From Methanosarcinales archaeon (GTDB lineage Archaea; Halobacteriota; Syntropharchaeia; Alkanophagales; Methanospirareceae), in the NCBI GenBank assembly GCA_030611585.1, contig JAUWPM010000001.1, positions 1,715-65,714 of the forward strand: a stretch of DNA of 64,000 nt, given 5' to 3'. The notes beneath the pieces were generated by a model. It had not been told where the DNA came from. It saw nothing but the letters and a program-made list of their open reading frames with translations, and ran no database searches. Below are positions 12,793-56,141 of this stretch, piece by piece (the first letter of the stretch is position 1; each line of letters begins with the position of its first letter). The position numbers and the translations under genes were made by a program.

Positions 12793-12820
12793 TTTGTTTT
12801 ATTTTCGTATATAAAGTATA

Positions 12821-14643: not shown

Positions 14644-14645
14644 GT

Positions 14646-35951: not shown

Positions 35952-36461
35952 ATGGGGGAAGACATAGAGGGAAAGGAGGCTCGGAAGACGTACCAACCAA
36001 TCGGAATAATACACTCAGGATTCCGGGATAAAAAAGACACGCCCATTCAGGGCATTTTCGCAAAGGGCGCAAAGGGTAAGGTGGAAGTGTTCCCTGAATA
36101 CGCTAACGGGCTCAAAGACATCGAGGGTTTCTCGCACCTTATCCTTATTTACCATTTCCATCGCTCTGACGGCTATTCGTTGATTTCAAAGCCGCTTTTA
36201 GAGGACGAACCGCATGGAATCTTCTCAATAAGGCATTTCAAAAGGCCCAACCCCATCGGATTGTCCGTAGTCAAGCTGGAGAGCGTAAAGGGGAATGTTT
36301 TGGAGATCAGCGACGTTGACGTCCTGGACGGTACGCCGCTGCTCGATATAAAACCCTTCGTGCCGCGGTTTGACAACAGACCGGATGCAAAAAGTGGGTG
36401 GCTCAGTAACCCCCATTTAGATCTGGTTAAGGGTGAATCGGGCAAACATAGAAGCGAATAG
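35952..36461 (+). CDS. TsaA/TrmO-family (YaeB-like) SAM-dependent methyltransferase
   Basis: IGIIHSGFRDKKDTPIQG...GLKDIEGFSHLILIYHFH...NPIGLSVVKL...DGTPLLDIKPF is the UPF0066 signature. Confidence 0.75.
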   Translation: MGEDIEGKEARKTYQPIGIIHSGFRDKKDTPIQGIFAKGAKGKVEVFPEYANGLKDIEGFSHLILIYHFHRSDGYSLISKPLLEDEPHGIFSIRHFKRPNPIGLSVVKLESVKGNVLEISDVDVLDGTPLLDIKPFVPRFDNRPDAKSGWLSNPHLDLVKGESGKHRSE

Positions 36462-38478: not shown

Positions 38479-39666
<1,188 letters not shown>

Positions 39667-39744: not shown

Positions 39745-39905
39745 AGAAAAAACCGAAAAGCTTTTATAGCGAGTGATATAAATGTGCATATCGCGTAAGC
39801 CATTATTTCGCCTCTGGTTCTGGTTTTGGTCATTACATACGGATATGGAACAGAAGCGGTAGCGTGGGGCGGATGTCGCCCCGCCCCTCGCATTGTTTTT
39901 GGCCG
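39745..39905 (+). promoter_or_regulatory. promoter plus operator followed by a conserved approximately 100-nt region ending in a GC hairpin and T-tract (possible sRNA or leader)
   Basis: accgaaaaGCTTTTATAgcgagtgatataaatgtgCATATCGcg ... gtggggcggatgtcgccccgcccctcgcattgttttt. A paralogous copy lies at 54285-54432 with a compensatory hairpin (ggggcgctgcaccgcccc). Confidence 0.45.
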
Positions 39906-40175: not shown

Positions 40176-40385
40176 TCAGTCTTTTGAGACCATTACTTCC
40201 GACGCTTTTATCACCGCTTCTACTTTATCGCCCGCTTTGAGACCAAGATCTTCCGCCGCCTCTTTTGTGATCATCGAGGTGATGATTGCGGGCTTGGTGA
40301 TCTCGATTTTTACCGTAGAAGCAACCTCGCCTTTCTCTATTGCCTTTACAACACCTTCAATCCTATTCCTTGCGCTTAATGGCAT
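40176..40385 (-). CDS. mop: Mop/TOBE-domain molybdate- or tungstate-binding protein (molbindin)
   Basis: 69 aa: SARNRIEGVVKAIEKGEVASTVKIEI...DLGLKAGDKVEAVIKASEVMV. This matches the C-terminal TOBE domains of the two ModC/WtpC proteins. Confidence 0.8.
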   Translation of the reverse strand: MPLSARNRIEGVVKAIEKGEVASTVKIEITKPAIITSMITKEAAEDLGLKAGDKVEAVIKASEVMVSKD

Positions 40386-40536: not shown

Positions 40537-41778
40537 ATGAAAATTAGAGATTGTATGCTGTGGATGATGGTATGCATTAGCATAGGATTGTTGTTTTTAG
40601 CGCCTCCAGCACTGGTAGCAACGACAGGAGGGGCAGTCGCGATACATGAGAACGATGGCGTTACAGTTTTGAACGCGATGACGGCGGATGGCTTCTTCGA
40701 TGGCTCCGTCACACTTACGGACGGGAATTTCACTTTAACCGCATACAATTCCGGGGTAGATTACGAAGTCAGACAACTTACGCCCCTGGGCGCACTCGAC
40801 GCGGCGGCGACTGCAGGTGCATTTGACTACAACTTCACTGATAAGAAGTTTGATTCGCAGGGTATCCTGATGGTTGACGACATCGGAGAGTACCACTACA
40901 ACAAGATCAACAGTTCGGTAAAGTGGGCGTGGAGCTGCTCAGTAAATGGCAATGTCCTGGACGACTGGAGCAATCCCGGAACCGAAGGCTTGAACGTCTA
41001 CGAGCTGCATGACAATGACGTGGTGTACTACTACTACGGGAACGTCAAGCTGCCTGGTTACGGGCCTGAAGACGCCATAGCGGCAGTCAATATTACCGTG
41101 AATCCCACGCCGGGTGACTGGAATCTCAAGCTCGTTGGCGTAGTCAATGAAACCGTCACAAAGGCGGAGTTTGAGAACGGAGTTGCCTGTGGGCATTATG
41201 CTAACTGGACAAACTCCGAGACCGGTGAGTTCTGGGAAGGTATGCCGCTCTGGTACCTCGTAGGGCGGGTTGACGATGAGATACAGCACGGCTCAGGTGC
41301 ATTCAACGACTCGCTCGCTGCGGAGGGGTACTCGGTAAAAGTAATAGCCGGCGACGGATGGAGCACCAGCCTTGCCAGCGCGGACATCGCACGGAACGAT
41401 GGTTACATCGTTGCAAATAAGCTCAACGGCTCAGCACTTCCGAATCAGACGCCGTCCGGGAAGCCCTGCTGGCCTCTTCACCTCAAAGGCGCTAACGTGA
41501 CTGGCGGACAGCAGGTCGGGAACATCGTTGAGATTGACCTTGTCGGTCTACCCGAACCGCCTGAGGGCTGGGAACTCAAGCTGCTCGGCGACGTTGGCGA
41601 TACGATCACGCAAGCCGAGTTCGAGGATGCTGTTTCATGCCATGGCGTGACGTACACCGACGGTAGCGATATTTGGAGTGGAGTTCCGCTCTGGTATCTC
41701 TGCGGTGCGGTGGACAACCTCGAGACTGGCAGTCACTGGACATTTAACGATACCTCGCAGCCGCAGACTACACGGTAA
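40537..41778 (+). CDS. secreted multi-SUOX-fold surface protein, N-terminal part (signal peptide, beta-rich domain, two SUOX-like modules); continues into 41850-42341 after a frameshift
   Basis: Sec-type signal peptide. Modules match the YedY/sulfite-oxidase Moco-domain pattern: WNLKLVGVVNETVTKAEFE..VACGHY......WEGMPLWYLVGRV.......GYSVKVIAGDGWSTSL........DGYIVANKLNGSALP....WPLHLKGANV. Frame 1 ends ...TFNDTSQPQTTR*, and frame 0 from 41748 reads LAAADYTVKVIAADGYN..., which is the expected continuation. Confidence 0.7.
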   Translation: MKIRDCMLWMMVCISIGLLFLAPPALVATTGGAVAIHENDGVTVLNAMTADGFFDGSVTLTDGNFTLTAYNSGVDYEVRQLTPLGALDAAATAGAFDYNFTDKKFDSQGILMVDDIGEYHYNKINSSVKWAWSCSVNGNVLDDWSNPGTEGLNVYELHDNDVVYYYYGNVKLPGYGPEDAIAAVNITVNPTPGDWNLKLVGVVNETVTKAEFENGVACGHYANWTNSETGEFWEGMPLWYLVGRVDDEIQHGSGAFNDSLAAEGYSVKVIAGDGWSTSLASADIARNDGYIVANKLNGSALPNQTPSGKPCWPLHLKGANVTGGQQVGNIVEIDLVGLPEPPEGWELKLLGDVGDTITQAEFEDAVSCHGVTYTDGSDIWSGVPLWYLCGAVDNLETGSHWTFNDTSQPQTTR

Positions 41779-41849
41779 AAGTAATCGCAGCCGATGGCTA
41801 TAACAGATCATTTGTCAGCAGCGAGATTGCTCGTAACAACGGTTATATC

Positions 41850-42341
41850 GTGGCAAACACGCTGAACGGAGAGCCGCTTGACTATCTATGCCCGCTAAAG
41901 CTTGTGGGTAGCGCCATTACATCTGGTAAGGATAAGGTTGGTAACATCTCTGAGATTGATCTCGTTGAGCTTATCACTCCGCCACCTGATTCCGGCAGCT
42001 ATAACCTGAATTTAACCGGCAAGATAACTGACGTGTTATCTCAAACCGAATTCGAGGCTGGAGTTGCCTGCCATGACGTGACCTGGACAGATGACGACGG
42101 GAATGTGTGGCAAGGTGTTCCGCTCTGGCTCTTCTGCGGCTGGGTGGACGACCGAATCCCACACGGACCCGACGGATTCAACGACAATCAAGCTGCTGCG
42201 GGATACAAGATCATCGTAAAAGCCGGCGACGGCTATGCCAAGGAATTCGCAAGCGCAGACGTCGCTCGGACTAACGACTACATTATCGCCAACACGGTGA
42301 ACGGCACGCCGCTCTCAAAGGATGGTTCGCACCCGCCCTAG
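41850..42341 (+). CDS. SUOX-fold module fragment of the same surface protein; ends at in-frame TAG 42339-42341
   Basis: ...VACHDVTWTDDDGNVWQGVPLWLFCGWVDD...GYKIIVKAGDGYAKEFASADVARTNDYIIANTVNGTPL. The TAG replaces the Trp of the conserved (S/C)WPL(H/R)L motif seen in the sister modules. Confidence 0.65.
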   Translation: MANTLNGEPLDYLCPLKLVGSAITSGKDKVGNISEIDLVELITPPPDSGSYNLNLTGKITDVLSQTEFEAGVACHDVTWTDDDGNVWQGVPLWLFCGWVDDRIPHGPDGFNDNQAAAGYKIIVKAGDGYAKEFASADVARTNDYIIANTVNGTPLSKDGSHPP

Positions 42342-42377
42342 CCACTTAGAATTGTTGGACCGGGCGCGCAGGGTGGC

Positions 42378-43823
42378 ATGAGTGTTGGCAACATCGTGGA
42401 GATCGAATTGACCGAGTTTGGTACGTCAACAGAGGTGCCCTCCGTACACGTCGTCAAGTACGATACGGATGGCACTACCATTCTGAACGAGACCAACGTC
42501 ACTTACCTGTGGATGAAGGCAAACCTCCTGGTCATCGGAGACGGCACAACGCACTACAAGTTCGAGGCTTGTGATTTCACCGAAGGCGATCACTGGGATC
42601 AGGCTGAGACCTACCCGGGTGGCTTCAAGATAGATCGGGTCGTGAAAGGGACCTCGGTGAAAGATCTCTGTGAACTCGTCGGAGGCATGGGCGCCGAGAC
42701 CGAGATCAAGCTGGTTGCCAGTGATGGGTACGAGACCTCGCTGGGCTACGCGAACATCTACACCGATGAACTTACGAGTACGCAGCGGGAACGTCAGGGT
42801 GATGCTTTCCTCGCCTGGTGGGCGGATGATCAAGGCTACGTGCCGGACTATTCCAACGGAATGCGGCTATTCTTTAGCGCAAGTGACGATGACTACGTCT
42901 TCGGCCTGTGGGACATGCACGAGTGCATGGACGAAGATTACTGGCACTATTACTGGAATGGGGGCGTACAGTATCCCTCGTGTGCGGGTCTTTCAGCTAA
43001 GTATATTGATACAATCAAGATATATTCTGCGCCCGAAGCAGACTGGAATCTCACGTTAGAAGGCGCTATCAACGATACCATCAGCAAGTCATACTTTGAG
43101 CAGGCTCTCGCCTGTACCATGGGCGGACACGCAGCGGAATATACAGACAGCAAAGGCAGGATGTGGGAAGGAATGCCGTTATGGCTGCTCTGTGGCTGGG
43201 TGGATGACGAGAACAAGCATTCCGCGGGCGCATACAATGACGCACTCGCCGCGGCAGGGTACAACATTACGATCAGCGCGAGCGATGGCTATAACGTGAC
43301 AATTGACAGTAGAGATACGATCCGAAACAGCAACTACATCGTTGCGAACACGCTGAACGGCACGCACATACCTTCAGACAGTTCAAGCTGGCCACTCAGA
43401 CTCGTCGGAGCTAACGTATCCGGCAGCATGACCGTCAAAGGGATAGCAAAGATTGAACTGGATACTATTCCTACTCCTGCACCAACGCCAACACCAAGAC
43501 CACACGGCGGTGGAGGAGGAGCATCTAAAGATTCCGACGGCGATGGGTACTCAGATATACAAGAACTGCTTGCGGGAACCAACCCGAACGACCAGAATGA
43601 CTATCCAAACAAACCTGTAGCAACGCCAACACCGACTCTAACGTCAGCACCAACCGCAACACCAACACCAGTACCAACGGTACCACCAACAGTAGCACCA
43701 ACAGCAACACCAGTACCAGCAACACCCACACCAACACCGGAAGAACCGGGCTTCGAAGTAGGATTTGCCATTGCCAGCTTATTAGCGATCGCATATCTGG
43801 TGCTAAGAAAGAGGAGGAAGTAG
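42378..43823 (+). CDS. C-terminal part of the same surface protein: SUOX-like modules, Pro/Thr linker, DxDGDGxxD calcium-binding-like motif, PGF-CTERM
   Basis: No signal peptide of its own; same frame as 41850-42341. Contains VHVVKYDTDGTTILNETNVTYLWMKANL...VKDLCELVGGMGAETEIKLVASDGY... and a second module ...LACTMGGHAAEYTDSKGRMWEGMPLWLLCGWVDD.... Ends [25 protein letters not shown]. Confidence 0.7.
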   Translation: MSVGNIVEIELTEFGTSTEVPSVHVVKYDTDGTTILNETNVTYLWMKANLLVIGDGTTHYKFEACDFTEGDHWDQAETYPGGFKIDRVVKGTSVKDLCELVGGMGAETEIKLVASDGYETSLGYANIYTDELTSTQRERQGDAFLAWWADDQGYVPDYSNGMRLFFSASDDDYVFGLWDMHECMDEDYWHYYWNGGVQYPSCAGLSAKYIDTIKIYSAPEADWNLTLEGAINDTISKSYFEQALACTMGGHAAEYTDSKGRMWEGMPLWLLCGWVDDENKHSAGAYNDALAAAGYNITISASDGYNVTIDSRDTIRNSNYIVANTLNGTHIPSDSSSWPLRLVGANVSGSMTVKGIAKIELDTIPTPAPTPTPRPHGGGGGASKDSDGDGYSDIQELLAGTNPNDQNDYPNKPVATPTPTLTSAPTATPTPVPTVPPTVAPTATPVPATPTPTPEEPGFEVGFAIASLLAIAYLVLRKRRK

Positions 43824-43905
43824 AAGCAGAAAGGAACGAACCATAAAACAAGAAACTCGTTTTTATTTCACCTGAAAAATCCGCATAAGCACGGAGGAAG
43901 GCACT

Positions 43906-44898
43906 ATGAATCGTGTGAAGAAGGATAAGCATCAAGAATGGAGAGGTATGCTGCTCATCGGTACCCTTCTCGTGCTTCTCCTCCTCGCTGTACCACCAAC
44001 AACGGCAGCGACAACAGAGGTACATCTAATAAAGTACGCCGTGGATGAATCAATACTGAACGAGACCACGGTGAACTACACGTGGATGGAAGCGAATCTG
44101 CCGGTTTATGGCGATGGCGTAACGCATTACTACCACCAGGGACCTACCTTTAATGAGTGCGATCCGTGGGATCCTGCTGAGGATACAAACGTGGAAAATA
44201 GAGATTACGGTGCTGTGCGAGGGACGGATGTTAAGGATCTGAGCGATCTGGTGGGAGGGATGTCCCTTGGCGATGAGATAAAAATTAAGGCATCTGACGG
44301 CTTCTACAAGAGGTTCAACTACACAAATATCTATGCGCCACAACCAAGGCAGGGGCCGTTGGTTCTGACATGGTGGCATGCGGGAGATGGATACGTGCCC
44401 GACTATTATACTGGAATGCGTCTCATCTTCTTTGCCGACACCAGCACGAATCCATGGGGTTACCATGTATTTGGCAACTGGGACATGCACGAATGTCTCG
44501 CTCCAAAGTACTGGCATAACTATAGTGGAATATGGCCTTCTTCGAGTGGACTGTCTGTGTACCACGTTGATGAACTGGCGATATACAGCACGCTTGATCA
44601 CGCGGAGCTACGTTCAATTAAGGTTTCACCTACCGAAGTAACGCTGAACAGCAGAGATACGCAGCAGTTCACGGCAACCGCATACGACCAATATGGCAAT
44701 GAAATGCCAAACATTGACTTTACATGGGATAGCAGCAATGAAACCGTTGGAACTGTTGACGATACAGGATTGTTCGAGGCAAAAGCAGCAGGAACTACAA
44801 CGGTTACGGCGGCAAACGGAACCGTGAATGGAACGGCAATGGTAACGGTAATTCCCATCCCGATTACACTGGACCCTACATCACGGGCACTACAATAA
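43906..44898 (+). CDS. secreted SUOX-fold plus Big_2 domain protein, frameshifted into the downstream PAP-like ORF
   Basis: Signal peptide, then VHLIKYAVDESILNETTVNYTWMEANLPVYGDGVTHYYHQGP...VKDLSDLVGGMSLGDEIKIKASDGF...GMRLIFFAD (SUOX-like variant). A Big_2 Ig-like domain follows (VTLNSRDTQQFTATAYDQYGNEMP...GTTTVTAANGTVNGTAMVTV). Frame 0 is open from 44760 and reads ...PYITGTTINSTTINWKTENATTGTVKYATEG..., which is an FN3-like purple acid phosphatase N-domain. Confidence 0.65.
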   Translation: MNRVKKDKHQEWRGMLLIGTLLVLLLLAVPPTTAATTEVHLIKYAVDESILNETTVNYTWMEANLPVYGDGVTHYYHQGPTFNECDPWDPAEDTNVENRDYGAVRGTDVKDLSDLVGGMSLGDEIKIKASDGFYKRFNYTNIYAPQPRQGPLVLTWWHAGDGYVPDYYTGMRLIFFADTSTNPWGYHVFGNWDMHECLAPKYWHNYSGIWPSSSGLSVYHVDELAIYSTLDHAELRSIKVSPTEVTLNSRDTQQFTATAYDQYGNEMPNIDFTWDSSNETVGTVDDTGLFEAKAAGTTTVTAANGTVNGTAMVTVIPIPITLDPTSRALQ

Positions 44899-44945
44899 AC
44901 TCGACGACAATCAACTGGAAGACGGAAAATGCAACTACGGGGACG

Positions 44946-46343
44946 GTGAAGTATGCAACAGAAGGGTATTACACAGAACACGGCGACTACGACCATGCCG
45001 TTGAAGATGAGGAAGAGACGCAACTTCACCACCTCATTATTACGAATCTGATGCCGAATACGATATATCATTATCAACTAATAATCGGGAATGAATCCAC
45101 TGGCGACCATTTCTTCAGAACATTTCCGGTTACCAGTTCGTTCACCTTTATTGTGTACGGGGATACGAGAGAGCAAACACCGTTATTCACACAATTGGAG
45201 CGACACAAGCTCGTTGCAGACCGTATCGCAGAAGAGGAAAACATTTCATTCGTAATACACACCGGAGATTTTGTCTGCAATGGAAACGACCTTGACGAAT
45301 GGAACAGATTCTTCGATGCCGGCAGAGCGATGCTCGTAAATACAACTATTTATCCTGTGCTCGGAAATCATGAGGATAATCACACGAACTACTACGATAT
45401 GTTTGGCGTTCCAGAGTGGTATTCGTTCGACTGTGGAAACGCGCACTTTACCGTGCTGGATAGCAACTGGGTACCGCTACAGCAGACGGCATGGTTGCGG
45501 AACGACCTTAATACGAGTGCCGCATGGAAATTCGTGTCGTTCCACCATCCGATCTACAGCTCAGATGAACGACATTGGGGCGGCTGGAAGAATGACGTGT
45601 GGGAGAATATTTTCATAAACAACAGTGTAAATGCGGTGTTCAACGGTCACGTGCACGTTTACGAGCGCTACGAGGAGAATGGCATTCAGTACGTGGTTGT
45701 AGGTTGCGGTGGCGCGCCGTTGTATTCTCTTGCATCTGAGAAGATAGCCGGTTACCAGAACAGCTTTGAACACGCACTCGGATACGCTAAGATTACGATA
45801 GACTCAGATAAAGGAGAAGCGACAACGGAAGTAATAAAAGTCGCGGACGTCTCAGAAGATAACAAGAATGTTACATATATCTACCCACAGAACACGATAT
45901 TTGAGACCGTCGTCCTCTATTTAACCCAGCCTCCGCAAATATTCGATACCGGAGTCCCGGATAATCCCTATCCCTCTATTTCCGGCACACATAAAGGAAT
46001 GATCAAAACGGGTCGGGACATTAACGTGAGCACGATGTATACTTACCCATGCCCGGGAACAGGAGGGCATACAGAATACGTAAAGATCGAGAATGATTCC
46101 TGGAACATAACGGCGAATTGGACGGGGTACCAGGGCGACTGGCAGAACATTACCTTTGACGACTCGTTCACGCTAAAGGCCGGTGAAACGTACAGTTATA
46201 CAATAATAACCGGCTCGTATCCGCAGATAATACACAAGCATAAATTCAATGCAACAGGAGGAACAATAAACTGCACTGAATTCATAGACGCCAACGGAAA
46301 ACACTATCAGAATTGGGTACCCGCTATCAGACTATCCCGTTAG
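44946..46343 (+). CDS. purple-acid-phosphatase-like metallophosphoesterase domain (continuation of 43906-44898)
   Basis: GDTREQ, GDFVCNG, GNHE, VSFHHPIYS and GHVHVYER metallophosphatase motifs. GTG start assigned by the ORF finder; the upstream frame is open. Confidence 0.7.
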   Translation: MKYATEGYYTEHGDYDHAVEDEEETQLHHLIITNLMPNTIYHYQLIIGNESTGDHFFRTFPVTSSFTFIVYGDTREQTPLFTQLERHKLVADRIAEEENISFVIHTGDFVCNGNDLDEWNRFFDAGRAMLVNTTIYPVLGNHEDNHTNYYDMFGVPEWYSFDCGNAHFTVLDSNWVPLQQTAWLRNDLNTSAAWKFVSFHHPIYSSDERHWGGWKNDVWENIFINNSVNAVFNGHVHVYERYEENGIQYVVVGCGGAPLYSLASEKIAGYQNSFEHALGYAKITIDSDKGEATTEVIKVADVSEDNKNVTYIYPQNTIFETVVLYLTQPPQIFDTGVPDNPYPSISGTHKGMIKTGRDINVSTMYTYPCPGTGGHTEYVKIENDSWNITANWTGYQGDWQNITFDDSFTLKAGETYSYTIITGSYPQIIHKHKFNATGGTINCTEFIDANGKHYQNWVPAIRLSR

Positions 46344-46419: not shown

Positions 46420-47841
46420 TCATTCTTTTCGCATATCTCTAAGGTCGTAGCAGAGGTATCCTTCTTCTACCAAATCCTCTTTCCCTTCTAATCTCTTCCC
46501 AATCAACCCGAAATGCTCCATCCGGGATTCATTGTTCCAATTAACCGATTCTGATTTATCTTTCAACTCTGCAAGAATCCTCCGCGCTTCCTCTAATTTC
46601 AAATCACTCCATTTCACCTCAAAGAAAGCTATCTCTTTTGTCTCTTCATTTAATGCCACCAGATCAATCTCCTTCTCTCTGTGCCACCATCTTCCTATCT
46701 TATGAAATCGGAATGGCTTTCTCTCTACCAGGAATTCCATTGCTATCTTTTCAAATGTAAATCCCAAATAGGAATTGAAGTCTCGCTTGAAATCTGACCA
46801 CGCACCTTCTATCTCCCACGTCTCGATCTCAGAGAAGTATCGTGAAACAAATCTGAACCAGAACTCGAAGAAATTATCCTTCATTCTATAAACCCCCCGT
46901 GTCCTTCTCTTATCCAGCACGGAATGCTCCCGCTTCACCAATCCCATATCCCCCAGAATTGATAGATATGCAGCGACATTCTTCGCCTCTAAGAAGGAAT
47001 AATTTGCTATCTCAACGACCTTCGTATATCCCATAGAAATTGCCTCAAGAATCTGGAAATATGTCTCTGGCTCTCTTAATTCCTCCTCAAGTATTAATTT
47101 GGGCTCGCGAAACAAAAAGCTTTCCGGATTAAAGACATTCTCCTTTATTTCCTTCTCCACGTTAATTCCGGAGAAGAATTCTAAATATTTCGGAATACCG
47201 TCACAAACGGCAAAAATCTTGATTAAATCTTCTATCTTCGTCTTTGGAAACCACTCACGCAAATCCCGGAATCTCAAAGGTTGAATAAATATCTGTCCGG
47301 TGCTTCTACCGTACAATGGCGATTTATAGCCCAAAACTCGCTTTTTCATCATGCTAACCGCAGACCCGGAGAGAATGAGCTTTACCTCTTTCTCTGGTAG
47401 AATTTTATCTGCAATCGTCTGAAATTCCGCAATAATATCACTCTTCTTAATTAAGTATGAGAATTCGTCTATGACAACAGTCAGCCCTTTCCTGTCCTCT
47501 TTGACTATAAAATCGAAACATTCAGAGAAGCTATTAAAATTCGGCTTTGGTATCCCAAAGTACTCCCCTATTGCTTTATTAAATTTTGATAGGTTATACT
47601 GCCATTTTCTCTCCTCACAGAGCAGGAATATATTCGCCTTGTCCTTTACAAATTCCTTTAGTAATCTGCTCTTCCCGGTCCTTCTCCTGCCGGAAACGAT
47701 GATAAACTCAAACCCCTTCTCTTTGTATTTCTTATCTAAAAATTCAAGCTCCTTTCTCCTGTCAATAAACTCTTTTCGGTACATGATTATATAATTTCGT
47801 TTCGAATATTTAAATGTAGTCTTTCCGGTAATAAAAAGCAA
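46420..47841 (-). CDS. archaeal ATPase (Arch_ATPase/AAA) with C-terminal DUF234 domain
   Basis: Walker A GRRRTGKSRLL and Walker B VVIDEFSY. C-terminal DUF234-type domain (about 110 aa). Flanked on the right by MITE-like fragments (47935-48135). Confidence 0.8.
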   Translation of the reverse strand: MLFITGKTTFKYSKRNYIIMYRKEFIDRRKELEFLDKKYKEKGFEFIIVSGRRRTGKSRLLKEFVKDKANIFLLCEERKWQYNLSKFNKAIGEYFGIPKPNFNSFSECFDFIVKEDRKGLTVVIDEFSYLIKKSDIIAEFQTIADKILPEKEVKLILSGSAVSMMKKRVLGYKSPLYGRSTGQIFIQPLRFRDLREWFPKTKIEDLIKIFAVCDGIPKYLEFFSGINVEKEIKENVFNPESFLFREPKLILEEELREPETYFQILEAISMGYTKVVEIANYSFLEAKNVAAYLSILGDMGLVKREHSVLDKRRTRGVYRMKDNFFEFWFRFVSRYFSEIETWEIEGAWSDFKRDFNSYLGFTFEKIAMEFLVERKPFRFHKIGRWWHREKEIDLVALNEETKEIAFFEVKWSDLKLEEARRILAELKDKSESVNWNNESRMEHFGLIGKRLEGKEDLVEEGYLCYDLRDMRKE

Positions 47842-47934
47842 TTAATAAACCACGAGATTAACACAAGAAATGTTGGCTAATAAGGGATAAAATTGCAGAT
47901 AGAACACAGAAAACTGGTTCCTATTATTGTTCTC

Positions 47935-48135
47935 TCGTGAAATAAGCCCGTACATGGTTTTCGGGGACGTGGGCAGTGCCCACGATGCGGGGGCACGGGC
48001 GGAGCCACACATAAAAAAGTCTCTCTAGTGAAACTTCCTTTTTCAAAGAGACATATTCTTTCTTAGCACAGGTTCTTTCTACGAGAAAGAAAGTGTTGTG
48101 CAATCTGGTGGTTACAACTTTAACTTTAAACCACG
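47935..48135. repeat. MITE-like repeat fragments (family A hairpin and family B-like core)
   Basis: ggggacgtgggcagtgcccacgatgcgggggcacgggcggagcc ... ttctttcttagcacaggttctttctacgagaaagaaagtgttgtgcaatctgg resembles 8900-8930 and 11120-11210. Confidence 0.6.
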
Positions 48136-48170
48136 AGATTCCACGAGAGGGACACAGAAGAATAAAAAAA

Positions 48171-48198
48171 ATCTGTGAGAATCTGTGAGAATCTGTGG
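48171..48198. repeat. short tandem repeat, 3 x aatctgtgag-like (10 bp)
   Basis: atctgtgaga atctgtgaga atctgtgg, immediately upstream of promoter copy e. Confidence 0.6.
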
Positions 48199-48224
48199 TT
48201 ACAAAATTTTTATCAGCATGAATA

Positions 48225-48272
48225 AACCGAAAACCTTTTATGTCGAACGGTCTATTTTTACATATCAATGCG
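48225..48272 (+). promoter_or_regulatory. promoter plus operator copy heading the SUOX-wtpABC operon
   Basis: aaaccgaaaaCCTTTTATGTCGAACGGtctatttttaCATATCAATGcgg. Confidence 0.6.
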
Positions 48273-49845
48273 GCGTGGTACGGAAAAGATGAAACAAATG
48301 AAACAATATGTGCCACTAGCATTATTGTGTGCCGGTGTTGCGCTGCTGCTCTTAACGCTTCCAGCGCAGGCAGCAGGTACGACAGAAGTGCACGTGGTGA
48401 AATACGCCTCTGATGGCACGACCGTTCTGAACGAGACGACGGTAAACTACATGAGGATGAAGGCGAATCTACCAGTCTACGGGGATGGGACTACGCATTA
48501 CTACCATCAGGGACCGATCTTCGAAGATGCATGGAATGAAGTACACCCCAACGAGACGTGGGATCTTGAAGAGGACAAGTGGAACCCGGAAGAGGACGTC
48601 AATGTACTTGGGGAAGACCTGGGCGCCGTGAAAGGAACGGACGTTAAGGATCTGTGTGATTTGGTCGGAGGAATGTCAGAAGGCGATGAGGTAAAGATTA
48701 AAGCCGTTGACAACTTCTACAAGAGTTTCCCGTACTCGAACGTCTACGAACCCGATCCGCGACAGGGTCCGATGGTCGTGACCTGGTACACCGAAGACGC
48801 CACGGAGAGCGGGCCGATTAGCGGGTACGTGCCGGAGGACTACTATAACGGCATGCGACTCGTATTCCTTGCTGATGCTTCCACCAACCCGTGGGGCAAG
48901 CACGTATTTGGCATCAGCGACATGCGCGCATGCCTCCCTGAGGATTACTGGCATTACTATCAGTACCCGGATTACCCTTCTACGGGCGGATACACTATAA
49001 AGTACATAGATAGAATCCTGATCTACAGCAGTATCGAGCCACCGGAATTGACGTCAATCGCGGTTTCTCCATCCAGCGTGGAGCTGGAAGAAGATGCGAC
49101 AAAACAGTTCAATGCAACCGCATACGACCAGAATGGCGATGAAATGCCAGATATAATCTTTACGTGGACGAGCAGTGATGAAACAGTTGGAACAATTGAC
49201 GAAAATGGATTATTTACCGCATTAGATGCCGGGGAGACCACAATAACAGCAGCGAACGAAACAGTAGAGGGAACGGCAACTGTAACGGTACACGAGGAAG
49301 ACAGCGATGACAATGAAGATGGGGAAGATAGTGGTGCTGGTGACGGAACTTCTCAGTCCAGCCCAGTCCTAACCGTAATTAACGTCTCACCGCCATCAGT
49401 AACGCTGAACGCCAGTAACACGCAGCAGTTCAATGCAACCGCTTACGACCAAACGCAGAACCCGATAGTGGGTGTCGTTTTCAATTGGACGATCGGCAAT
49501 GAAACCGTTGGAACGATCAATAACGCTGGATTCTTCACCGCTATTGCAGCAGGAACGACAACGATAAGAGCTGCGAATGGAACCGTGAACGGAACGGCAA
49601 ATGTAACGGTGCTTGCTCCGACAACAACACCTTCACCAACTGAAACGCTAACGGTAAACGCAACGCCTTTTCCATCTCCTACCGCTCATTCAATTCCGAC
49701 ACACTCGCCATCTGCAACAGTAACAGCAACACCTACGCCCACAGTAACGTCTACGCCAACGCCATCAGTACCAGGATTTGAAGCTTTATTCGCACTCGTA
49801 GGATTGTTGACGGTAGCTTACGTGATTAATAGGAGAAAAAAATAA
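48268..49845 (+). CDS. secreted surface protein: SUOX-fold module, two Big_2 domains, Thr/Pro linker and PGF-CTERM (intact)
   Basis: Signal peptide. VHVVKYASDGTTVLNETTVNYMRMKANLPVYGDGTTHYYHQGP...VKDLCDLVGGMSEGDEVKIKAVDNFY...GMRLVFLAD...KYIDRILIYS. Two Big_2 domains (VSPSSVELEEDATKQFNATAYDQNGDEMP...; VSPPSVTLNASNTQQFNATAYDQTQNPIV...). Ends PGFEALFALVGLLTVAYVINRRKK. Confidence 0.75.
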   Translation: MRRGTEKMKQMKQYVPLALLCAGVALLLLTLPAQAAGTTEVHVVKYASDGTTVLNETTVNYMRMKANLPVYGDGTTHYYHQGPIFEDAWNEVHPNETWDLEEDKWNPEEDVNVLGEDLGAVKGTDVKDLCDLVGGMSEGDEVKIKAVDNFYKSFPYSNVYEPDPRQGPMVVTWYTEDATESGPISGYVPEDYYNGMRLVFLADASTNPWGKHVFGISDMRACLPEDYWHYYQYPDYPSTGGYTIKYIDRILIYSSIEPPELTSIAVSPSSVELEEDATKQFNATAYDQNGDEMPDIIFTWTSSDETVGTIDENGLFTALDAGETTITAANETVEGTATVTVHEEDSDDNEDGEDSGAGDGTSQSSPVLTVINVSPPSVTLNASNTQQFNATAYDQTQNPIVGVVFNWTIGNETVGTINNAGFFTAIAAGTTTIRAANGTVNGTANVTVLAPTTTPSPTETLTVNATPFPSPTAHSIPTHSPSATVTATPTPTVTSTPTPSVPGFEALFALVGLLTVAYVINRRKK

Positions 49846-49846
49846 A

Positions 49847-50671
49847 ATGAACAGAAAAATAGTGTTTGGGATTTCACTGCTTCTGCTCTTAGTATTCGCA
49901 ACGGGTTTTGCTCATGCGGATCCAACGACGGAAGTGCACGTGATAAAGTATGCTGAGAATGAAACAATACTGAACGAAACAACCGTAACGTACCAGTGGC
50001 TGGAGGCGAATCTGCCGGTTCAGGGAGATGGAATAACGCATTATTACCATCAGGGACCGGTATTCGAGGGCGATAAATGGGATCCGAACGAGACGGCGAA
50101 CTATAAGGATAGAGGCGCCGTGAAAGGAACGGATATAAAGGATTTGTGCGATCTCGTGGGAGGGATGTCGCCGGGTGACGAAGTGATGATCCACGCGCCG
50201 GACGGCTACCACGTGGAGTTCGGCTACGCAAACGTCTACGAACCACAGCTTAGACAGGGACCGATGGTTCTGTGCTGGCATTGCAGCGAGGATATAAAAG
50301 AAATCGGCGAGCGACAGGGCGAGGGGTATCCACCAGACTATTACACGGGGATGCGGCTCGTCTTCTTCGCTGACGATTCTACCAATTTAGAGGGTAAACA
50401 CGTCTTCGGCAACTGGGACATGCACGAATGCTTACCCGAGCAGTGCTATCACTTCTATGAGCTCTATCCCTCCACAAACGGGTTTTCAGTGAAGTGGGTG
50501 GATGAGCTAAGGATTTACAGTGGTGGATACACCGGCGAGCACGGCGATCCAGCGAAAGCTATGCCTACGCCCACGCCTGCGTCACGCTCAATACCGGGAT
50601 TTGAGCTCGTATTCGCAATTGCGGGATTGCTGTTAGTTGCTTGTCATACTTTAGAGAGGAAAAGAAGATGA
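49847..50671 (+). CDS. secreted SUOX-fold protein with PGF-CTERM (intact)
   Basis: VHVIKYAENETILNETTVTYQWLEANLPVQGDGITHYYHQGP...IKDLCDLVGGMSPGDEVMIHAPDGY...GMRLVFFAD...KWVDELRIYSG; ends PGFELVFAIAGLLLVACHTLERKRR. The ATG lies 1 nt after the upstream TAA. Confidence 0.75.
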   Translation: MNRKIVFGISLLLLLVFATGFAHADPTTEVHVIKYAENETILNETTVTYQWLEANLPVQGDGITHYYHQGPVFEGDKWDPNETANYKDRGAVKGTDIKDLCDLVGGMSPGDEVMIHAPDGYHVEFGYANVYEPQLRQGPMVLCWHCSEDIKEIGERQGEGYPPDYYTGMRLVFFADDSTNLEGKHVFGNWDMHECLPEQCYHFYELYPSTNGFSVKWVDELRIYSGGYTGEHGDPAKAMPTPTPASRSIPGFELVFAIAGLLLVACHTLERKRR

Positions 50672-51267
50672 AAAAAAGCAAAGTCCTTGGACTTTTACTT
50701 GTTGTTGCGGTGGTCTGTATCGGTGGTATTGCAGCGGTTGCGTATCTGAATCCTTTTGGCACGCCGGAGGAGACCGTTGACTGGAACGTGACGTTGATAG
50801 GGTGCGGAGGCGAGGAGAAAGTGCTAACGTTCGACGAGATAAAAGCGATGCCTTCTTACAAGGGCTACGGCGGGTTCTTCACTACGGTTGGCATAGTAAA
50901 CGGGCCGTATAAATGCAAAGGCGTGCCCTTGAAGGACCTCTGCGCGCTCGTTGGCGGACTCGATGCGTCAAACACTGTCTGGGTATCGGCACCCGATGGG
51001 TATTTAATGACCTTCAGCTACGATCAGGTCAACGGTGATTTCCGCACTTACGATCCTGCAACGTTTAAGGAAGTGCCACACGAGGATTTAACGCTGATCT
51101 TGATGTACGAGCAGGATGACGCACCGCTGTCCGATTACGATGGCAGACCGCTCAGACTCGCGATCGTATCATCGTCGTCGTCAAGCGATGAGTTCATAAC
51201 GGAAGGGCATAGCTGGGTGAAATGGGTGAATAAAATAGAGGTTCGAACACCCGCTGCGAGTGCGTAG
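50668..51267 (+). CDS. small membrane-anchored SUOX-fold (Oxidored_molyb-like) protein
   Basis: N-terminal TM or signal anchor. WNVTLIGCGGEEKVLTFDEIKAMP...CKGVPLKDLCALVGGLDASNTVWVSAPDGY...LTLILMYEQDDAPLSDYDGRPLRLAIVSS...SWVKWVNKIEV aligns along its whole length with the YedY/SUOX Moco domain. Its ATG overlaps the upstream TGA (ATGA). Confidence 0.75.
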   Translation: MKKSKVLGLLLVVAVVCIGGIAAVAYLNPFGTPEETVDWNVTLIGCGGEEKVLTFDEIKAMPSYKGYGGFFTTVGIVNGPYKCKGVPLKDLCALVGGLDASNTVWVSAPDGYLMTFSYDQVNGDFRTYDPATFKEVPHEDLTLILMYEQDDAPLSDYDGRPLRLAIVSSSSSSDEFITEGHSWVKWVNKIEVRTPAASA

Positions 51268-51281
51268 CAGGATGGAGAAAG

Positions 51282-52331
51282 ATGAACGCTAAGCACATTG
51301 TCGTACTAACACTAATCGCTGCGGTGGTTCTGAGTGCCGCGTGCATCTCCCAGGATCAAGGGAAGAGCAAATTGAAGGTCATTTATGCCGGGAGTCTGAT
51401 CCTCCCGTTTGGCGAGCTGGAGCAGGCGTTTGAGAGCGAGCATCCAGACGTGGACGTGCTGGTAGAGGGGCACGGAAGTATCCAGGCGATTCGGCATATA
51501 ACCGACGTGCATGAGGAGTACGACGTGATCGCCGTGGCAGACGATTCCTTAGTACCTGCAATGATGTACCCCGAGTATGCGGACTGGTGTGTGCGGTTCG
51601 CAACGAACCAGATGGTCATCATGTACACCAACAGGAGCAACTACGCGGCTGAGATAAACGACTCGAACTGGTATGAAATCCTCGCACGCCCAGATGTGAT
51701 GTTCGGCTTCTCGAATCCCATGTTCGATGCCTGCGGATACAGAACGCTGATGGTGATCCCGCTCGCGGAATCGTACTACGGCAATCAAACGATCTTTGAC
51801 GTACTGATCGCACGCAATTTCGACCCGCCATTGCCGCTGATTAAGGATAACGGCACGTACACAGTGGTGGTGCCCGAAGTATTCGAGCCGCAGGGAGATA
51901 AAATCGCCGTACGGGGCGGAAGCGTGCAATTAATAGCTCTGCTCGATTACGGCGGTATTGACTACGCCTTCGGATACAAGAGCGTGGCACAGCAGCACGG
52001 ACTGCGGTATTTGGAGCTGCCTGCCGAGATAGATTTGAGTTCGCCGGAGTACTGTGAGACGTACGATAAAGCTAAAGTTACGCTTGGATTTCAACGCTTT
52101 ACGTCCGTGGGTGTTGAGCGTATCGGCCGACCGATCTTCTACGGGATAACCGTCCCTAAGAACGCACCGGATCCTGAGCTGGGACTGGAATTCGTGAACT
52201 TCGTGCTGAGTGAGGAGGGGCAGAGGATTCTCCAGGACAATAATCAGCCTACTATCCCGCCCGAAGTGGACAATTTGGATAAAATACCCGTGGAGCTCAG
52301 ACCCGTGGTTATAAAAGAGATAAAAGAATAG
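51282..52331 (+). CDS. wtpA: WtpA-type tungstate/molybdate ABC transporter substrate-binding protein (lipobox-type N-terminus)
   Basis: Signal peptide with Cys (VLSAACIS). KLKVIYAGSLILPFGELEQAFESEHPDVDV... is paralogous to 38551-39666 ([15 protein letters not shown] motif shared). Confidence 0.85.
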   Translation: MNAKHIVVLTLIAAVVLSAACISQDQGKSKLKVIYAGSLILPFGELEQAFESEHPDVDVLVEGHGSIQAIRHITDVHEEYDVIAVADDSLVPAMMYPEYADWCVRFATNQMVIMYTNRSNYAAEINDSNWYEILARPDVMFGFSNPMFDACGYRTLMVIPLAESYYGNQTIFDVLIARNFDPPLPLIKDNGTYTVVVPEVFEPQGDKIAVRGGSVQLIALLDYGGIDYAFGYKSVAQQHGLRYLELPAEIDLSSPEYCETYDKAKVTLGFQRFTSVGVERIGRPIFYGITVPKNAPDPELGLEFVNFVLSEEGQRILQDNNQPTIPPEVDNLDKIPVELRPVVIKEIKE

Positions 52332-52347
52332 TGAGGAGGGAGGACGG

Positions 52348-53163
52348 ATGAACTCACTTTCAGGATGGCCCGGGACGGAGAAACTAAAGCGGGAGAAGGT
52401 CTACATCCTTTTCCTCTTCTTAGGGCTCGTTCTTGTTGCTTTTGTCTTTATTACAATTGGAAACTTGTATTACAAGCAAGCAGAAGACTTCTCCGGGTTA
52501 ATTGATGCTGCGACTGACCTCGTAGTTCTAAAAGCAATAGCGATAAGCATAACTATGGCACTGGCTTCCACCTTAATCGCGTTCTTATTTGGCGTCCCCT
52601 TAGCGTATTTCCTCGCGAGGAAGGAGTTCATGGGTAAGAGCGTAATAGAAGGTATTGTGGACATTCCCTTGATGATTCCACATGTGGTTGCTGGAATTGC
52701 ATTGTACGGGGTGTTCATGCGGTATGGATTGATCGGTGCGCCGCTTAGAAAATTGGGAATCGTAATTACGGATGCGTATCCCGGAATCGTGGTTGCGATG
52801 CTCTTCATGAGTCTCCCGTATTTGGTAGATACTGCGCGAGAAGGATTTAAAGAGGTTGATCCACGGTTAGAAAACGTTGCTCGCTCATTGGGCGCATCTC
52901 ATTGGAGAACGTTCCGAGAGATAACGTTCCCGCTTGCTTTCCCGTCCATATTGAGCGGCGCGATTCTGAGCTGGGGGCGAGCGATAAGCGAGTTCTCTGC
53001 GGTTCTAATCATCGCATATCACCCGATCTCCGCACCAATTTTAATCTACGAGAAGTTTACTTCGTTTGGACTTCGGGCATCACGACCAATCTCGGTTCTG
53101 CTGATCTCGATCTGTCTGGTTATTTTTATAATGCTGAGGTGGCTTCAGAGGAGAAGGGGATGA
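52348..53163 (+). CDS. wtpB: tungstate/molybdate ABC transporter permease
   Basis: Paralogue of 36480-37280 (LPLAFPSILSGAILSWGRAISEFSAVLIIA). Confidence 0.85.
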   Translation: MNSLSGWPGTEKLKREKVYILFLFLGLVLVAFVFITIGNLYYKQAEDFSGLIDAATDLVVLKAIAISITMALASTLIAFLFGVPLAYFLARKEFMGKSVIEGIVDIPLMIPHVVAGIALYGVFMRYGLIGAPLRKLGIVITDAYPGIVVAMLFMSLPYLVDTAREGFKEVDPRLENVARSLGASHWRTFREITFPLAFPSILSGAILSWGRAISEFSAVLIIAYHPISAPILIYEKFTSFGLRASRPISVLLISICLVIFIMLRWLQRRRG

Positions 53164-54249
53164 ATGATAGAAGTACGAGCTTTATACAAGGACTGGAAAG
53201 AGTTCGCTCTTAAAGACATAAACCTGGAAATTAAAAAAGGCGAGTATTTCGTCATTCTGGGTCCCACAGGTGCGGGAAAGACGTTACTGCTGGAGACGAT
53301 TGCGGGTTTTTATATCCCGGATAGCGGAGAAGTCAGGATTGACGGTCGTGACGTGACGATTATTCCACCCGAGAGGCGGAGGATCGGCTTTATTTATCAG
53401 GATTATTCACTCTTCCCACATTTGAACGTTGAGCAGAACATAGAATTCGGGTTGAAGTCGAGGAAAAAGTCTGCATCGCAGGATACGAACAGGAAGAGAG
53501 TGAAGGAAATAATGGACTGGCTGAGTATATCGCACCTTGCGCATCGCTACCCCGCTACGTTAAGTGGTGGAGAACAGCAGAAGGTTGCAATTGGCAGAGC
53601 GATTGCCATTGAACCTTCAATATTGCTTCTGGACGAGCCGCTATCTGCTTTAGACCGCAGAACGCAAGATCATCTGAGAGAGGAACTGAAGCGTGTGAAA
53701 GAAGAGTTTGGGATTACCATGGTTCACGTAACGCACGACCAGACGGAAGCGTTGGTGCTCGCGGATAGAATAGCGGTGATGATGCAAGGGCGAATAATGC
53801 AGGTGGGTACGCCTCAAGAGATTTTTAATAAGCCACTGAACGAGGAGTTAGCAGATTTTGTTGGCATCGAGAATGTATTACGTGGTGTAGTGCGAATTAA
53901 TGAGAATGGCATTGCGGAGATAGAAGTTGATATGGGGGTTACCATATTCGCCGTTTCGGAGTATCGTGATGGAGCGGTGAAAGTATTCATAAGGCCGGAA
54001 GACATAATTTTGTCAAAAAGCATAGGGGATAGCAGTGCGAGAAACGTTATGAACGTAAGAATAAAGGAGTTGCACGATATGGGCCCTTTAACTCGTGTAA
54101 AACTGGATGGCGAGCGTAGCAAGCATAGCAAGCGTATCGAGCTTGTAGCGCTTATTACGAAACAATCGCGTGAAGAGCTCGGGCTAAAAGAAGGGGACGC
54201 AGTCTACGCAACTTTTAAAGCGACTTCGGTGCACGTAGTGCGAGGATAG
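53164..54249 (+). CDS. wtpC: tungstate/molybdate ABC transporter ATPase with C-terminal Mop/TOBE domain
   Basis: Walker A GPTGAGKT and signature LSGGEQQKVAIGRA. C-terminal TOBE domain ends ...LGLKEGDAVYATFKATSVHVVRG. About 75% identical to the product of 37303-38376. Confidence 0.88.
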   Translation: MIEVRALYKDWKEFALKDINLEIKKGEYFVILGPTGAGKTLLLETIAGFYIPDSGEVRIDGRDVTIIPPERRRIGFIYQDYSLFPHLNVEQNIEFGLKSRKKSASQDTNRKRVKEIMDWLSISHLAHRYPATLSGGEQQKVAIGRAIAIEPSILLLDEPLSALDRRTQDHLREELKRVKEEFGITMVHVTHDQTEALVLADRIAVMMQGRIMQVGTPQEIFNKPLNEELADFVGIENVLRGVVRINENGIAEIEVDMGVTIFAVSEYRDGAVKVFIRPEDIILSKSIGDSSARNVMNVRIKELHDMGPLTRVKLDGERSKHSKRIELVALITKQSREELGLKEGDAVYATFKATSVHVVRG

Positions 54250-54284
54250 TGGACTGATATTAATATGGCGGTGCGAATTTCGAG

Positions 54285-54432
54285 AAAAACAGAAAAGCTT
54301 TTATGCCGAGCGGTGTATAACTACATATCGTGCACGCCATTATTTCGCCTCTGTTTTTACTCCAAAATACAGAAGCATTAGCACGAACGACCATGCGTGG
54401 GGCGCTGCACCGCCCCGCGCTGGTTCTTTGAG
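54285..54432 (+). promoter_or_regulatory. second copy of promoter/operator plus conserved hairpin region
   Basis: acagaaaaGCTTTTATGccgagcggtgtataactaCATATCGtgcacgccattatttcgcctctg...gcgtggggcgctgcaccgccccgcgctggttcttt is paralogous to 39745-39905. Confidence 0.45.
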
Positions 54433-54548
54433 ACCATTACTTCCGACGCTTTTATCATCGCTTCTACTTTATCACCCTCTTTTAGATAAAAATCTTCCGC
54501 CGCCTCTTTTGTGATCATCGAGGTTATGTTATGATTGCGTGCTTGGTG
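54428..54548 (-). pseudogene. truncated mop (molbindin) remnant
   Basis: The reverse strand reads ...ITKEAAEDFYLKEGDKVEAMIKASEVMVSK*, matching the C-terminal half of Mop 40176-40385. The N-terminal half and the start codon are lost. Confidence 0.6.
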
Positions 54549-54667
54549 AATAGACACGTTAGGATTCCTTCGCTTACAGTGATCGGTATAGTGTCATCTC
54601 AATCTGTACCGACTTTCGTGATGAAGCCCTAACCGAAAAGTTTATATAACCCCTTCTTCCTTAGTAG

Positions 54668-55858: not shown

Positions 55859-56141
55859 AGGGAGAGAGGAAGGGCAGCTGCCGGTCTTCTTTTTTTTAAG
55901 AGGGCTGAGGAAAGTCCCCCCACCATAAATAAGGATAAAACACGAACGCCGGGAGGGCGTAAGGCGAGAGTCTTGGCTCTGGTATAGAAACGATACCGTG
56001 CCATACTAAGTAACGTGATGATTCCGTGAGGATGAATTCGTATGGTTGCGGATGGAACGACCAACCTCGTGGGTGCAAGCCTGAGGAAGGCGCGAAGATA
56101 AATGCTGCTGAAACAGAAGGGGGCTTACTCTCCTCACTCCC
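55859..56141 (+). ncRNA. rnpB: RNase P RNA (archaeal type A-like)
   Basis: Universal P4 strands are present: GAGGAAAGTCC (55908-55918) and ACAGAAgggGGCTTA (56113-56127). The 5' GGGAGAGAGG can pair with the 3' CCTCACTCCC as P1. Overlapping ORFs on the minus strand are not credible. Confidence 0.7.

Follow-up and report, generated by a model that had tools for sequence, protein, structure and literature searches.

Anaerobic methanotrophic (ANME) archaea and methanogens depend on tungsten (W) and molybdenum (Mo) enzymes, such as formylmethanofuran dehydrogenase, and the sulfide in their habitats removes free molybdate and tungstate. How anaerobes acquire these metals under sulfide is an open question; a methanogen has been grown on tetrathiomolybdate and on molybdenite, with the machinery not identified (PMC11484787). 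The closest described importer is the archaeal WtpABC/ModABC transporter, represented by P. furiosus WtpA (3cg1) and A. fulgidus ModA-ModBC (2onk), with the gene order A-B-C and a TOBE domain on the ATPase. The closest described operators are those of ModE in E. coli and M. acetivorans, and the site in the latter organism reads RTTATGT-N8-RCATAAY (PMC12327845). A third reference system is PruR, a periplasmic pterin-binding protein of the sulfite oxidase (SUOX) fold that lacks the Mo-ligating Cys and binds small pterins (PMC11194511). Here we describe positions 48221-54249 of a 64,000-nt stretch of contig JAUWPM010000001.1 (referred to below as the window) from a methane-oxidising ANME-1 archaeon. 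The affiliation derives from matches of identical sequences, whose cluster mates (at least 90% identity) carry the names ANME-1 GoMg4 and Ca. Methanospirareceae. The importer encoded in this locus shares the gene order and the TOBE-bearing ATPase with WtpABC, whereas here three genes for predicted extracytoplasmic SUOX-fold proteins (P1, P2 and P3) precede it in what is most likely a single transcription unit P1-P2-P3-wtpA-wtpB-wtpC.

We propose that these six genes are switched as one regulated unit and that the surface proteins assist the importer in metal acquisition. A probability of about 0.7 is assigned to this reading as a whole, our confidence being higher for the operon and lower for the helper role. 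The importer itself has been described before, and there is nothing exceptional in the layout of the operon; what is new is the set of conserved accessory proteins and the operator. We found no published description of either the module or the operator in the searchable literature, which includes ANME comparative genomics (PMC9012536) and covers few of the subscription journals.

All six genes are located on the forward strand. P1 (48268..49845, with an alternative start possible at ATG 48289) encodes a signal peptide, a P2-like N-domain, two Big_2 Ig-like domains, a Pro/Thr-rich linker and a PGF-CTERM anchor. P2 (49847..50671) consists of a signal peptide, a highly conserved domain of ~200 aa that appears to be a remote relative of the SUOX/PruR fold, and a C-terminal anchor of the PGF-CTERM type. 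P3 (50668..51267, 199 aa) has an N-terminal hydrophobic membrane anchor followed by one Oxidored_molyb domain (SUOX fold) that is similar in size to PruR. The tungstate/molybdate-binding protein gene wtpA (51282..52331), whose product has a lipobox-like N-terminus (LSAAC), is followed by the ABC permease gene wtpB (52348..53163) and by wtpC (53164..54249), encoding an ABC ATPase with a C-terminal TOBE domain. By their profile scores the three importer genes match the archaeal tungstate/molybdate importer at the level of orthologues. WtpA passes NCBIfam NF003196 (384.7 bits, cut-off 355) and TIGR03730 (359.7 bits, cut-off 242.75) and finds in the PDB the A. fulgidus ModA/WtpA (2onk_E, E 6e-94) and the P. 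furiosus WtpA (3cg1, E 3e-66). WtpC passes NF040840 (446.7 bits, cut-off 440) and carries the Pfam domains ABC_tran and TOBE; a paralogue of its gene at 37322-38374 is 76-82% identical in nucleotide sequence. The best match of WtpB is NF040839, but its 309 bits fall below the cut-off of 340; the protein also contains Pfam BPD_transp_1.

The genes follow each other closely. The TAA stop codon of P1 (49843-45) is separated by a single A from the ATG of P2 at 49847 (gap +1), and the TGA of P2 overlaps the ATG of P3 in ATGA at 50668-50671 (-4), both as the preliminary description had them. The two gaps it placed at 15-20 nt are 14 nt between P3 (TAG 51265-67) and wtpA (ATG 51282), and 16 nt between wtpA (stop 52329-31) and wtpB (ATG 52348). 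The reported overlap of the wtpC start with the upstream TGA has to be corrected: TGA 53161-63 and ATG 53164-66 abut (gap 0), and the ATG that does overlap, at 53160, is out of frame. A Shine-Dalgarno sequence of the GGAG/GAGG type precedes all five internal starts. Such a series of five consecutive junctions of at most 16 nt is typical of an operon and not a matter of chance, yet it is not unusual in this window, where ~17 of ~45 co-directional neighbour pairs, counted by eye on the map of open reading frames (ORFs), lie within 20 nt of each other.

More telling is the element in front of P1. Positions 48221..48269 (forward strand) hold one of six copies of a 49-nt repeat family, the fifth in order, recognised by the invariant columns of the family alignment and by a score of 64.8 bits on the family matrix. 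Its inferred roles are those of a promoter with an operator: a purine-rich CCGAAAA (48227-33) resembles the transcription factor B recognition element (BRE), a TATA-like TTTTATGT occupies 48236-43, a conserved CGA (48244-46) lies directly 3' of the TATA box, and a conserved ACATATC (48260-66) falls approximately at the expected transcription start. Across the family the invariant positions comprise the purine-rich BRE-like stretch, TTTTAT, the CGA right after the TATA box and CATATC ~17 nt further on. The elements beyond a generic archaeal promoter make up a candidate operator, TTTTATrnCGA-N13-rCATATCG. The six copies, at 35001, 38421, 39747, 40445, 48221 and 54284 on the forward strand, score 58-66 bits on the matrix built from them, and everything else on both strands of the 64 kb scores at most 12 bits; no further copy is located within 48270-54249.

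All six copies adjoin Mo/W genes, and each of the other Mo/W uptake units of the window likewise has the promoter-operator in front of it. The copy at 35001-49 is followed by a ModA-type substrate-binding protein, a TrmO_N-like protein, a permease and an ATPase-TOBE protein; that at 38421-69 by a WtpA-like substrate-binding protein with PGF-CTERM; and that at 40445-93 heads a second surface-protein operon, with an intact stand-alone TOBE gene (69 aa, 40176-40385, reverse strand) lying divergently upstream of it. No ORF follows the copies at 39747-95 and 54284..54332, the latter being the sixth and starting 35 nt past the wtpC stop codon. From this gene company we infer that the operator responds to Mo/W. 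Searching the core matrix against 1.24 Mb of related genome loci (those compared in this analysis carry L-numbers) returned matches only at the heads of homologous clusters and never between P3 and wtpA; the carriers are the ANME-1-like loci L010, L014, L016, L017, L019 and L025 and a Methanocellales metagenome-assembled genome, L004. The consensus of 13 sites including those of relatives is nctTTTTATanCGAntgGTntatnntTgCATATCGnn. A scan of metagenomes with a degenerate pattern returned at least 120 loci, nearly all of them chance matches, with L128 the only one to score as a real site among the matches listed; the regulon therefore is not extendable by such a pattern.

As in the ModE operators of E. 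coli and M. acetivorans, an A/T-rich site lies over the promoter of Mo/W transport genes, TTATGT-like and RCATA-like elements are present, and repression at metal sufficiency is the expected logic. The motif is nevertheless better described by direct repeats of ATAYCGR at a distance of ~22 bp than by the ModE palindrome, a reading that we reject for the spacing and asymmetry of the site (PMC12327845). It is a candidate Mo/W-responsive operator of ANME-1 distinct from the ModE site. DtxR-like and NikR-like regulators encoded in the window were considered as its regulator and set aside, since their family affiliation points to Fe/Mn and Ni.

The two ORF-less copies belong to longer segments (39747-39905 and 54284-54420, forward strand) that have GCCATTATTTCGCCTCTG in common, together with a hairpin rich in GC (GUGGGGCG...CGCCCCGC). 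On folding, 54328-54420 gives z = -4.0 and 39791-39905 only z = -1.8. Each runs towards a TOBE gene or its remnant on the opposite strand, and neither has an Rfam match. The remnant at 54378-54557 (reverse strand) retains only the C-terminal half of the protein (ITSMITKEAAED...EVMVSK), its stop codon lost and its N-terminal half missing. The segments could encode a Mo/W-regulated small or antisense RNA, or be merely a duplicated piece of DNA.

The order of the genes provides a second line of evidence. The P2 family has 1258 detectable homologues in Methanomicrobiales, Methanocellales, Methanosarcinales and ANME, and on Methanoculleus and Methanocellales contigs P2-like, P3-like and WtpA-like binding proteins are encoded in tight succession. 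In a synteny census of 80 loci, with one genome per species, P2 and P3 are adjacent in 81 of 81 junctions, 76 of which overlap, mostly by 4 nt; among 72 P3-WtpA junctions 53 overlap and 63 are at most 20 nt long. Both the order and the overlaps have been retained in ANME-1, ANME-2, GoM-Arc1, Methanothrix, Methanomicrobiales and Methanocellales. Relatives of a 413-aa repeat protein, P1-like proteins and a metallophosphoesterase resembling purple acid phosphatases are often encoded upstream, which are the gene types of the operon at 40537-46343 in the window. The P3 family is present in Firmicutes too, and a Moorellaceae genome contains the whole module as a string of genes for a P2-like protein, a fusion of P2-like, repeat and S-layer homology (SLH) parts, a second P2-like protein, a P3-like protein and WtpA, WtpB and WtpC. 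These bacterial proteins are 43-57% identical to those of the window and have an SLH anchor in place of PGF-CTERM. Since the gene order has persisted in two domains of life although the type of anchor was exchanged, the module is very likely a functional unit.

In three Methanocorpusculum loci (L058, L077 and L080) wtpC and wtpB lie right downstream of P2-P3-WtpA on the opposite strand, in convergent orientation; there the module stays linked to the importer genes but would not be transcribed with them. Locus L002, which at first sight offers a variant gene arrangement, holds the same sequence in four blocks with unaligned separators of ~100 nt, probably assembly gaps.

The conclusion that 48221-54249 is most likely one operon stands because no operator copy is found inside it and the motif occurs only at the cluster heads of relatives, and because the order P2-P3-WtpA is conserved and the whole module recurs in a bacterium. 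The preliminary description, which had placed the surface proteins and wtpABC in a single operon under a shared operator, was probably right, although its support comes from the distribution of the operator, the synteny and the bacterial module rather than from the reasons it gave. What it called direct sequence evidence of co-expression is a deduction from the sequence and not a direct demonstration.

Several observations weigh against our reading of the locus. wtpB follows wtpA in just 17 loci, and ~43 of ~60 relatives with sufficient downstream sequence are without it; the conserved core is therefore P2-P3-WtpA and not the whole importer, and, in contrast to described WtpABC systems, the surface proteins of most relatives travel with WtpA only, without WtpBC. 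No ModE-like gene (helix-turn-helix plus TOBE) is present among the ten small ORFs of the window that were tested, the larger ORFs being scanned in part; the TOBE domain found in this set is a stand-alone one. Unlike in the ModE site, the elements of the operator are spaced by 16 nt and not 8, and the right element is CATATCG and not CATAAY. The structural model of P2, of modest confidence (pLDDT 66.7), has PruR (7kom) as its best PDB match at E 0.024, which is not significant alone. The remaining points concern signals and coupling inside the unit.

Translational coupling had been proposed for the whole string. In Haloferax and E. coli, gaps of ~20 nt nearly abolish termination-reinitiation coupling (PMC10666635), so coupling would be limited to three of the five junctions: it is plausible at P1/P2 (+1), P2/P3 (-4) and wtpB/wtpC (0), and unlikely at P3/wtpA (+14) and wtpA/wtpB (+16), where the gaps are probably too long and independent initiation led by a Shine-Dalgarno sequence is the more likely mode. 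The coupling argument is thus weakest at P3/wtpA, the very link between surface proteins and importer. Archaeal promoters may sit within the upstream gene. For this reason the short gaps do not exclude internal promoters, and the earlier statement that there was no room for them does not follow.

Internal signals were sought by custom scans for TATA octamers and T-runs instead of a bacterial sigma-70 tool, since the host is archaeal. From 48260 to 53122 the forward strand has no run of five T (T5), and from 48290 to 52840 it lacks octamers that differ from TTTATATA, TTTAAATA or TTTTTATA at no more than one position. At up to two mismatches, TATA-like octamers are depleted in the operon (7.0 per kb, against 15.8 per kb in the window). 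The first exact TATA-like octamer, TTTTTATA at 53123..53130 (forward strand), is located inside wtpB, 41 nt before the ATG of wtpC, coincides with the first T5 run of the unit and may act as a weak promoter within it or as a site of pausing. A second exact TTTTTATA lies at 53307 inside wtpC, and a weak candidate with two mismatches, ATAAAATA, at 51230, 52 nt before wtpA. The first T5 beyond the wtpC stop codon is at 54354-58, past the sixth operator copy. RNase P RNA and 5S rRNA were the only matches of an Rfam search of 34000-56500 (E up to 1); neither the operon nor the DNA that follows it gave a riboswitch or known small RNA. The element that had been considered the only recognisable promoter, then placed at 48225-48272, is real.

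The alternative that survives best is a pair of overlapping units, in which wtpABC, or wtpC alone, has an extra constitutive or differently regulated promoter in the preceding coding sequence, so that importer expression would be partly uncoupled from that of the surface proteins. It draws on the candidate sites at 51230 and 53123, on the 14 nt that separate P3 from wtpA here where most relatives have an overlap, on the separate Shine-Dalgarno sequence of each gene and on the absence of wtpBC next to wtpA in most relatives. Yet the 51230 site belongs to a class that occurs 7-16 times per kb and falls in codons of a conserved VKWVNKIEV motif, the candidate TATA box at 53123 has no preceding purine-rich BRE, and no operator copy is located inside the unit. 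In the relatives, an overlap of P3 and WtpA, present in 53 of 72, speaks for obligatory co-transcription of the two. We therefore regard two units as unlikely; the sequence favours a single one, with a minor internal start still possible, especially for wtpC.

The identity of the surface proteins determines what the unit may be for. P3 passes Pfam PF00174 (Oxidored_molyb, 2.6e-9, 37.3 bits, cut-off 24), and its predicted model (pLDDT 86.9) has PruR (7kom) as the top Foldseek match (E 8e-8, TM 0.77 on the target). Sulfite oxidases, SorA, SoxC/SoxCD, nitrate reductase and YedY come next, with E values of 1e-5 to 1e-7 for sulfite oxidases, SoxCD, nitrate reductase and YedY and a probability of 1.0 for sulfite oxidase, SorA and YedY. 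The P2 family is related to the P3 family (hhalign probability 97.7%, E 2e-12), and PruR ranks first for P2 as well, if weakly. In an alignment of 25 P2 sequences 57 columns are invariant, with many His, Tyr, Trp and Asp among them, and a specific site for binding or catalysis is suggested by this. The N-domain of P1 matches the P2 family (hhalign probability 100%, E 3e-76) without its invariants at residues ~147-152 and ~244-248 (DGYH is replaced by DNFY, VKW by IKY, and NWDMHE by ISDMRA), and P1 may be a non-binding, structural paralogue of P2. Neither P1 nor P2 has a Pfam-significant match to Oxidored_molyb. Both conform to the PGF-CTERM pattern of a C-terminal PGF motif, a hydrophobic helix and a basic tail after a Thr/Pro-rich linker: P1, which also matches Big_2 at 4e-23, scores 30.7 bits on PF18204 (cut-off 18.8) and 26.7 bits on TIGR04126 (cut-off 24.5), and P2 scores 22.9 bits on the former and 16.5 on the latter, below its cut-off. 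Records of the P2 family (P0035-P0103) are often named 'argininosuccinate synthase' at NCBI, a name that neither Pfam nor NCBIfam supports here and that looks like an evident misnomer spread by propagated misannotation.

Like PruR of Agrobacterium and Vibrio (7kos, 7kom), P3 is predicted to be a small secreted protein consisting almost solely of a Cys-less SUOX fold. Unlike the proteobacterial PruR, which partners the diguanylate cyclase-phosphodiesterase DcpA, a GGDEF-EAL protein, in a signalling operon (PMC11194511), the proteins described here accompany WtpA and no DcpA homologue, in archaea and Firmicutes; sequence identity to PruR is 16-18%, and its PW motif is not evident, the invariant motif of the P3 family being NGP(Y/F). 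The Cys-less branch of the SUOX fold, so far represented by a signalling protein of proteobacteria, would thereby be extended to archaea and to a different context.

P1-P3 could instead be genuine enzymes of the sulfite oxidase family, exported to the surface with a Mo/W cofactor, that consume the metal and do not acquire it. In addition to the Pfam and Foldseek matches of P3 to this family, its homologues are named 'molybdopterin-dependent oxidoreductase' or 'YedY' by the annotation pipelines PGAP and JGI, and P3 shares with SUOX, SorA, SoxC and YedY/MsrP the fold of the molybdenum cofactor (Moco) domain and a C-terminal G-x-P-x-R ... VKW motif. Its best structural match, however, is the non-enzymatic PruR, and only in the C-terminal third does its sequence resemble those of solved SUOX enzymes. 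The long beta-hairpin of P3 (model residues 64-87), at whose tip SUOX enzymes ligate Mo through a Cys, ends in an invariant, Cys-free FFTTVG; C83, the only Cys near the tip, is A or V in homologues, and the corresponding region of P2 reads THYYHQGP. This criterion (PMC11194511) was judged by alignment and model topology, not by residue-level structural superposition. Pfam detects no Mo-co_dimer (dimerisation) domain, no haem domain and no other catalytic accessory domain. Exported Moco proteins normally require a twin-arginine (Tat) signal, whereas no twin-arginine motif is conserved across the N-termini of the P3 family, which are of the Sec/anchor type. An operator shared with uptake genes moreover predicts induction at metal scarcity, and a consumer would be expected to respond in the opposite way. 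Enzymes of this kind are therefore very unlikely. Of the preliminary name, 'SUOX surface proteins', the fold and the location are retained; SUOX is a label of fold only, and membership of P1-P3 in a Moco-enzyme family is not supported.

Considering these data together, we propose the following sequence of events. Transcription would start at the BRE/TATA promoter, with the operator at its TATA-proximal and start-site regions. At W/Mo sufficiency a putative repressor, presumably responsive to molybdate or tungstate, would occupy the operator of all these promoters, and at limitation the whole set would be transcribed together; such joint switching at scarcity is expected because the same promoter-operator precedes every Mo/W uptake unit of the window. 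P1-P3 would be exported by Sec and held on the outer face of the membrane, P1 and P2 by PGF-CTERM and P3 by its N-terminal anchor, where their Cys-less, PruR-like SUOX-fold domains would sit beside lipid-anchored WtpA. Overlaps of 4 nt and 1 nt are enriched among genes for subunits of complexes (PMC10666635), and since the order and the 4-nt overlaps are conserved in ~80 species, P2, P3 and WtpA are likely to work together. They may cooperate, possibly as a complex, in capturing or converting W/Mo species of the environment and handing tungstate or molybdate to WtpA for transport by WtpBC. An oxyanion, a thio-species or a pterin are the candidate ligands of the SUOX-fold domains.

A broader and more tentative interpretation, which we think possible but would not yet favour, is that P2, P3 and WtpA form with the paralogous repeat proteins and the metallophosphoesterase an unrecognised surface machine for W/Mo that is not a free oxyanion, such as thio-tungstate or thio-molybdate and mineral- or pterin-bound metal. 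The Cys-less SUOX-fold domains would then be capture or conversion sites feeding WtpA, and the users would be methanogens, ANME and some Firmicutes of sulfidic habitats. The module, widely conserved, tied to WtpA by gene overlap and transferred between domains, is in any case a concrete candidate for the machinery by which anaerobes acquire these metals under sulfide, and cultured carriers suitable for tests exist in Methanoculleus, Methanocalculus, Methanocorpusculum and Moorellaceae. That P1-P3 are nothing more than S-layer or adhesion proteins which reached the vicinity of wtpABC by genomic hitch-hiking, without a functional link, is barely credible: the Big_2 domains, Pro/Thr linker and PGF-CTERM of P1 do resemble those of many archaeal surface proteins, but the conservation of order and overlaps across the archaeal groups named above, the Moorellaceae module with its different anchor, the second operator-controlled operon of paralogues in the window and the invariant columns of P2, which indicate a specific site rather than a scaffold, all speak against it.

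The paralogous operon under operator control (40537..46343, forward strand) encodes the 413-aa repeat protein, a repeat protein of 163 aa, two P2-like proteins, one of 481 aa with Oxidored_molyb, TSP3 and PGF-CTERM and one of 330 aa with Big_2, and the metallophosphoesterase, which has 465 aa. The nucleotide repeats D1, D3, D4, D7, D8 and D16 are common to this operon and P1/P2. The two surface-protein operons are separated in the window by an ATPase_2/DUF234 gene (46420..47841, reverse strand; named after the Pfam domains of its identical counterpart in L002) and a 380-nt spacer (47842-48220). In the related ANME-1 loci L012, L014, L016, L017 and L018, the genes for the metallophosphoesterase, P1, P2, P3 and WtpA are contiguous, and in L014, L016 and L017 a single operator copy is located at the head of the contiguous cluster. 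That the downstream half of the split cluster has its own copy fits selection for the same control of both halves. The spacer includes AATCTGTGAG, a 10-nt unit that occurs three times in tandem at 48170-48199, shortly before the promoter; AAACCACGAGATT is repeated at ~47847 and ~48129. A relation of the 413-aa repeat protein to P3 was not significant by hhalign (probability 4%); the two are connected by BLAST matches through the Moorellaceae fusion protein only, and no fold is claimed for it.

Other units of the window show features of their own. The TrmO_N-like gene at 35952-36461 (forward strand, Pfam 1e-40) lies between the binding protein and the permease of the ModA-type operon; this placement recurs in L010 and L025. 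The second WtpA-like binding protein (38481-39666, forward strand), encoded behind an operator copy of its own, has a Thr/Pro linker and PGF-CTERM at its end and would be held by this C-terminal anchor instead of an N-terminal lipobox. A separate non-coding repeat (CTCTTTAAGACACAGATTTACACTGATTTA...) lies between genes at 3749-3822, 8801-8874, 10049-10089, 11027-11079, 12799-12857, 14636-14721 and 22137-22195, in a region with FeoB-like and ZIP-like transporters, several S-adenosylmethionine methyltransferases and the DtxR-like and NikR-like regulators, and may be the promoter/operator of a different regulon. Among structural RNAs, the archaeal RNase P RNA is found at 55862-56139 (forward strand, 188.6 bits), and 5S rRNA at 34819-34940 (reverse strand, 96.3 bits), directly upstream of the first operator copy.

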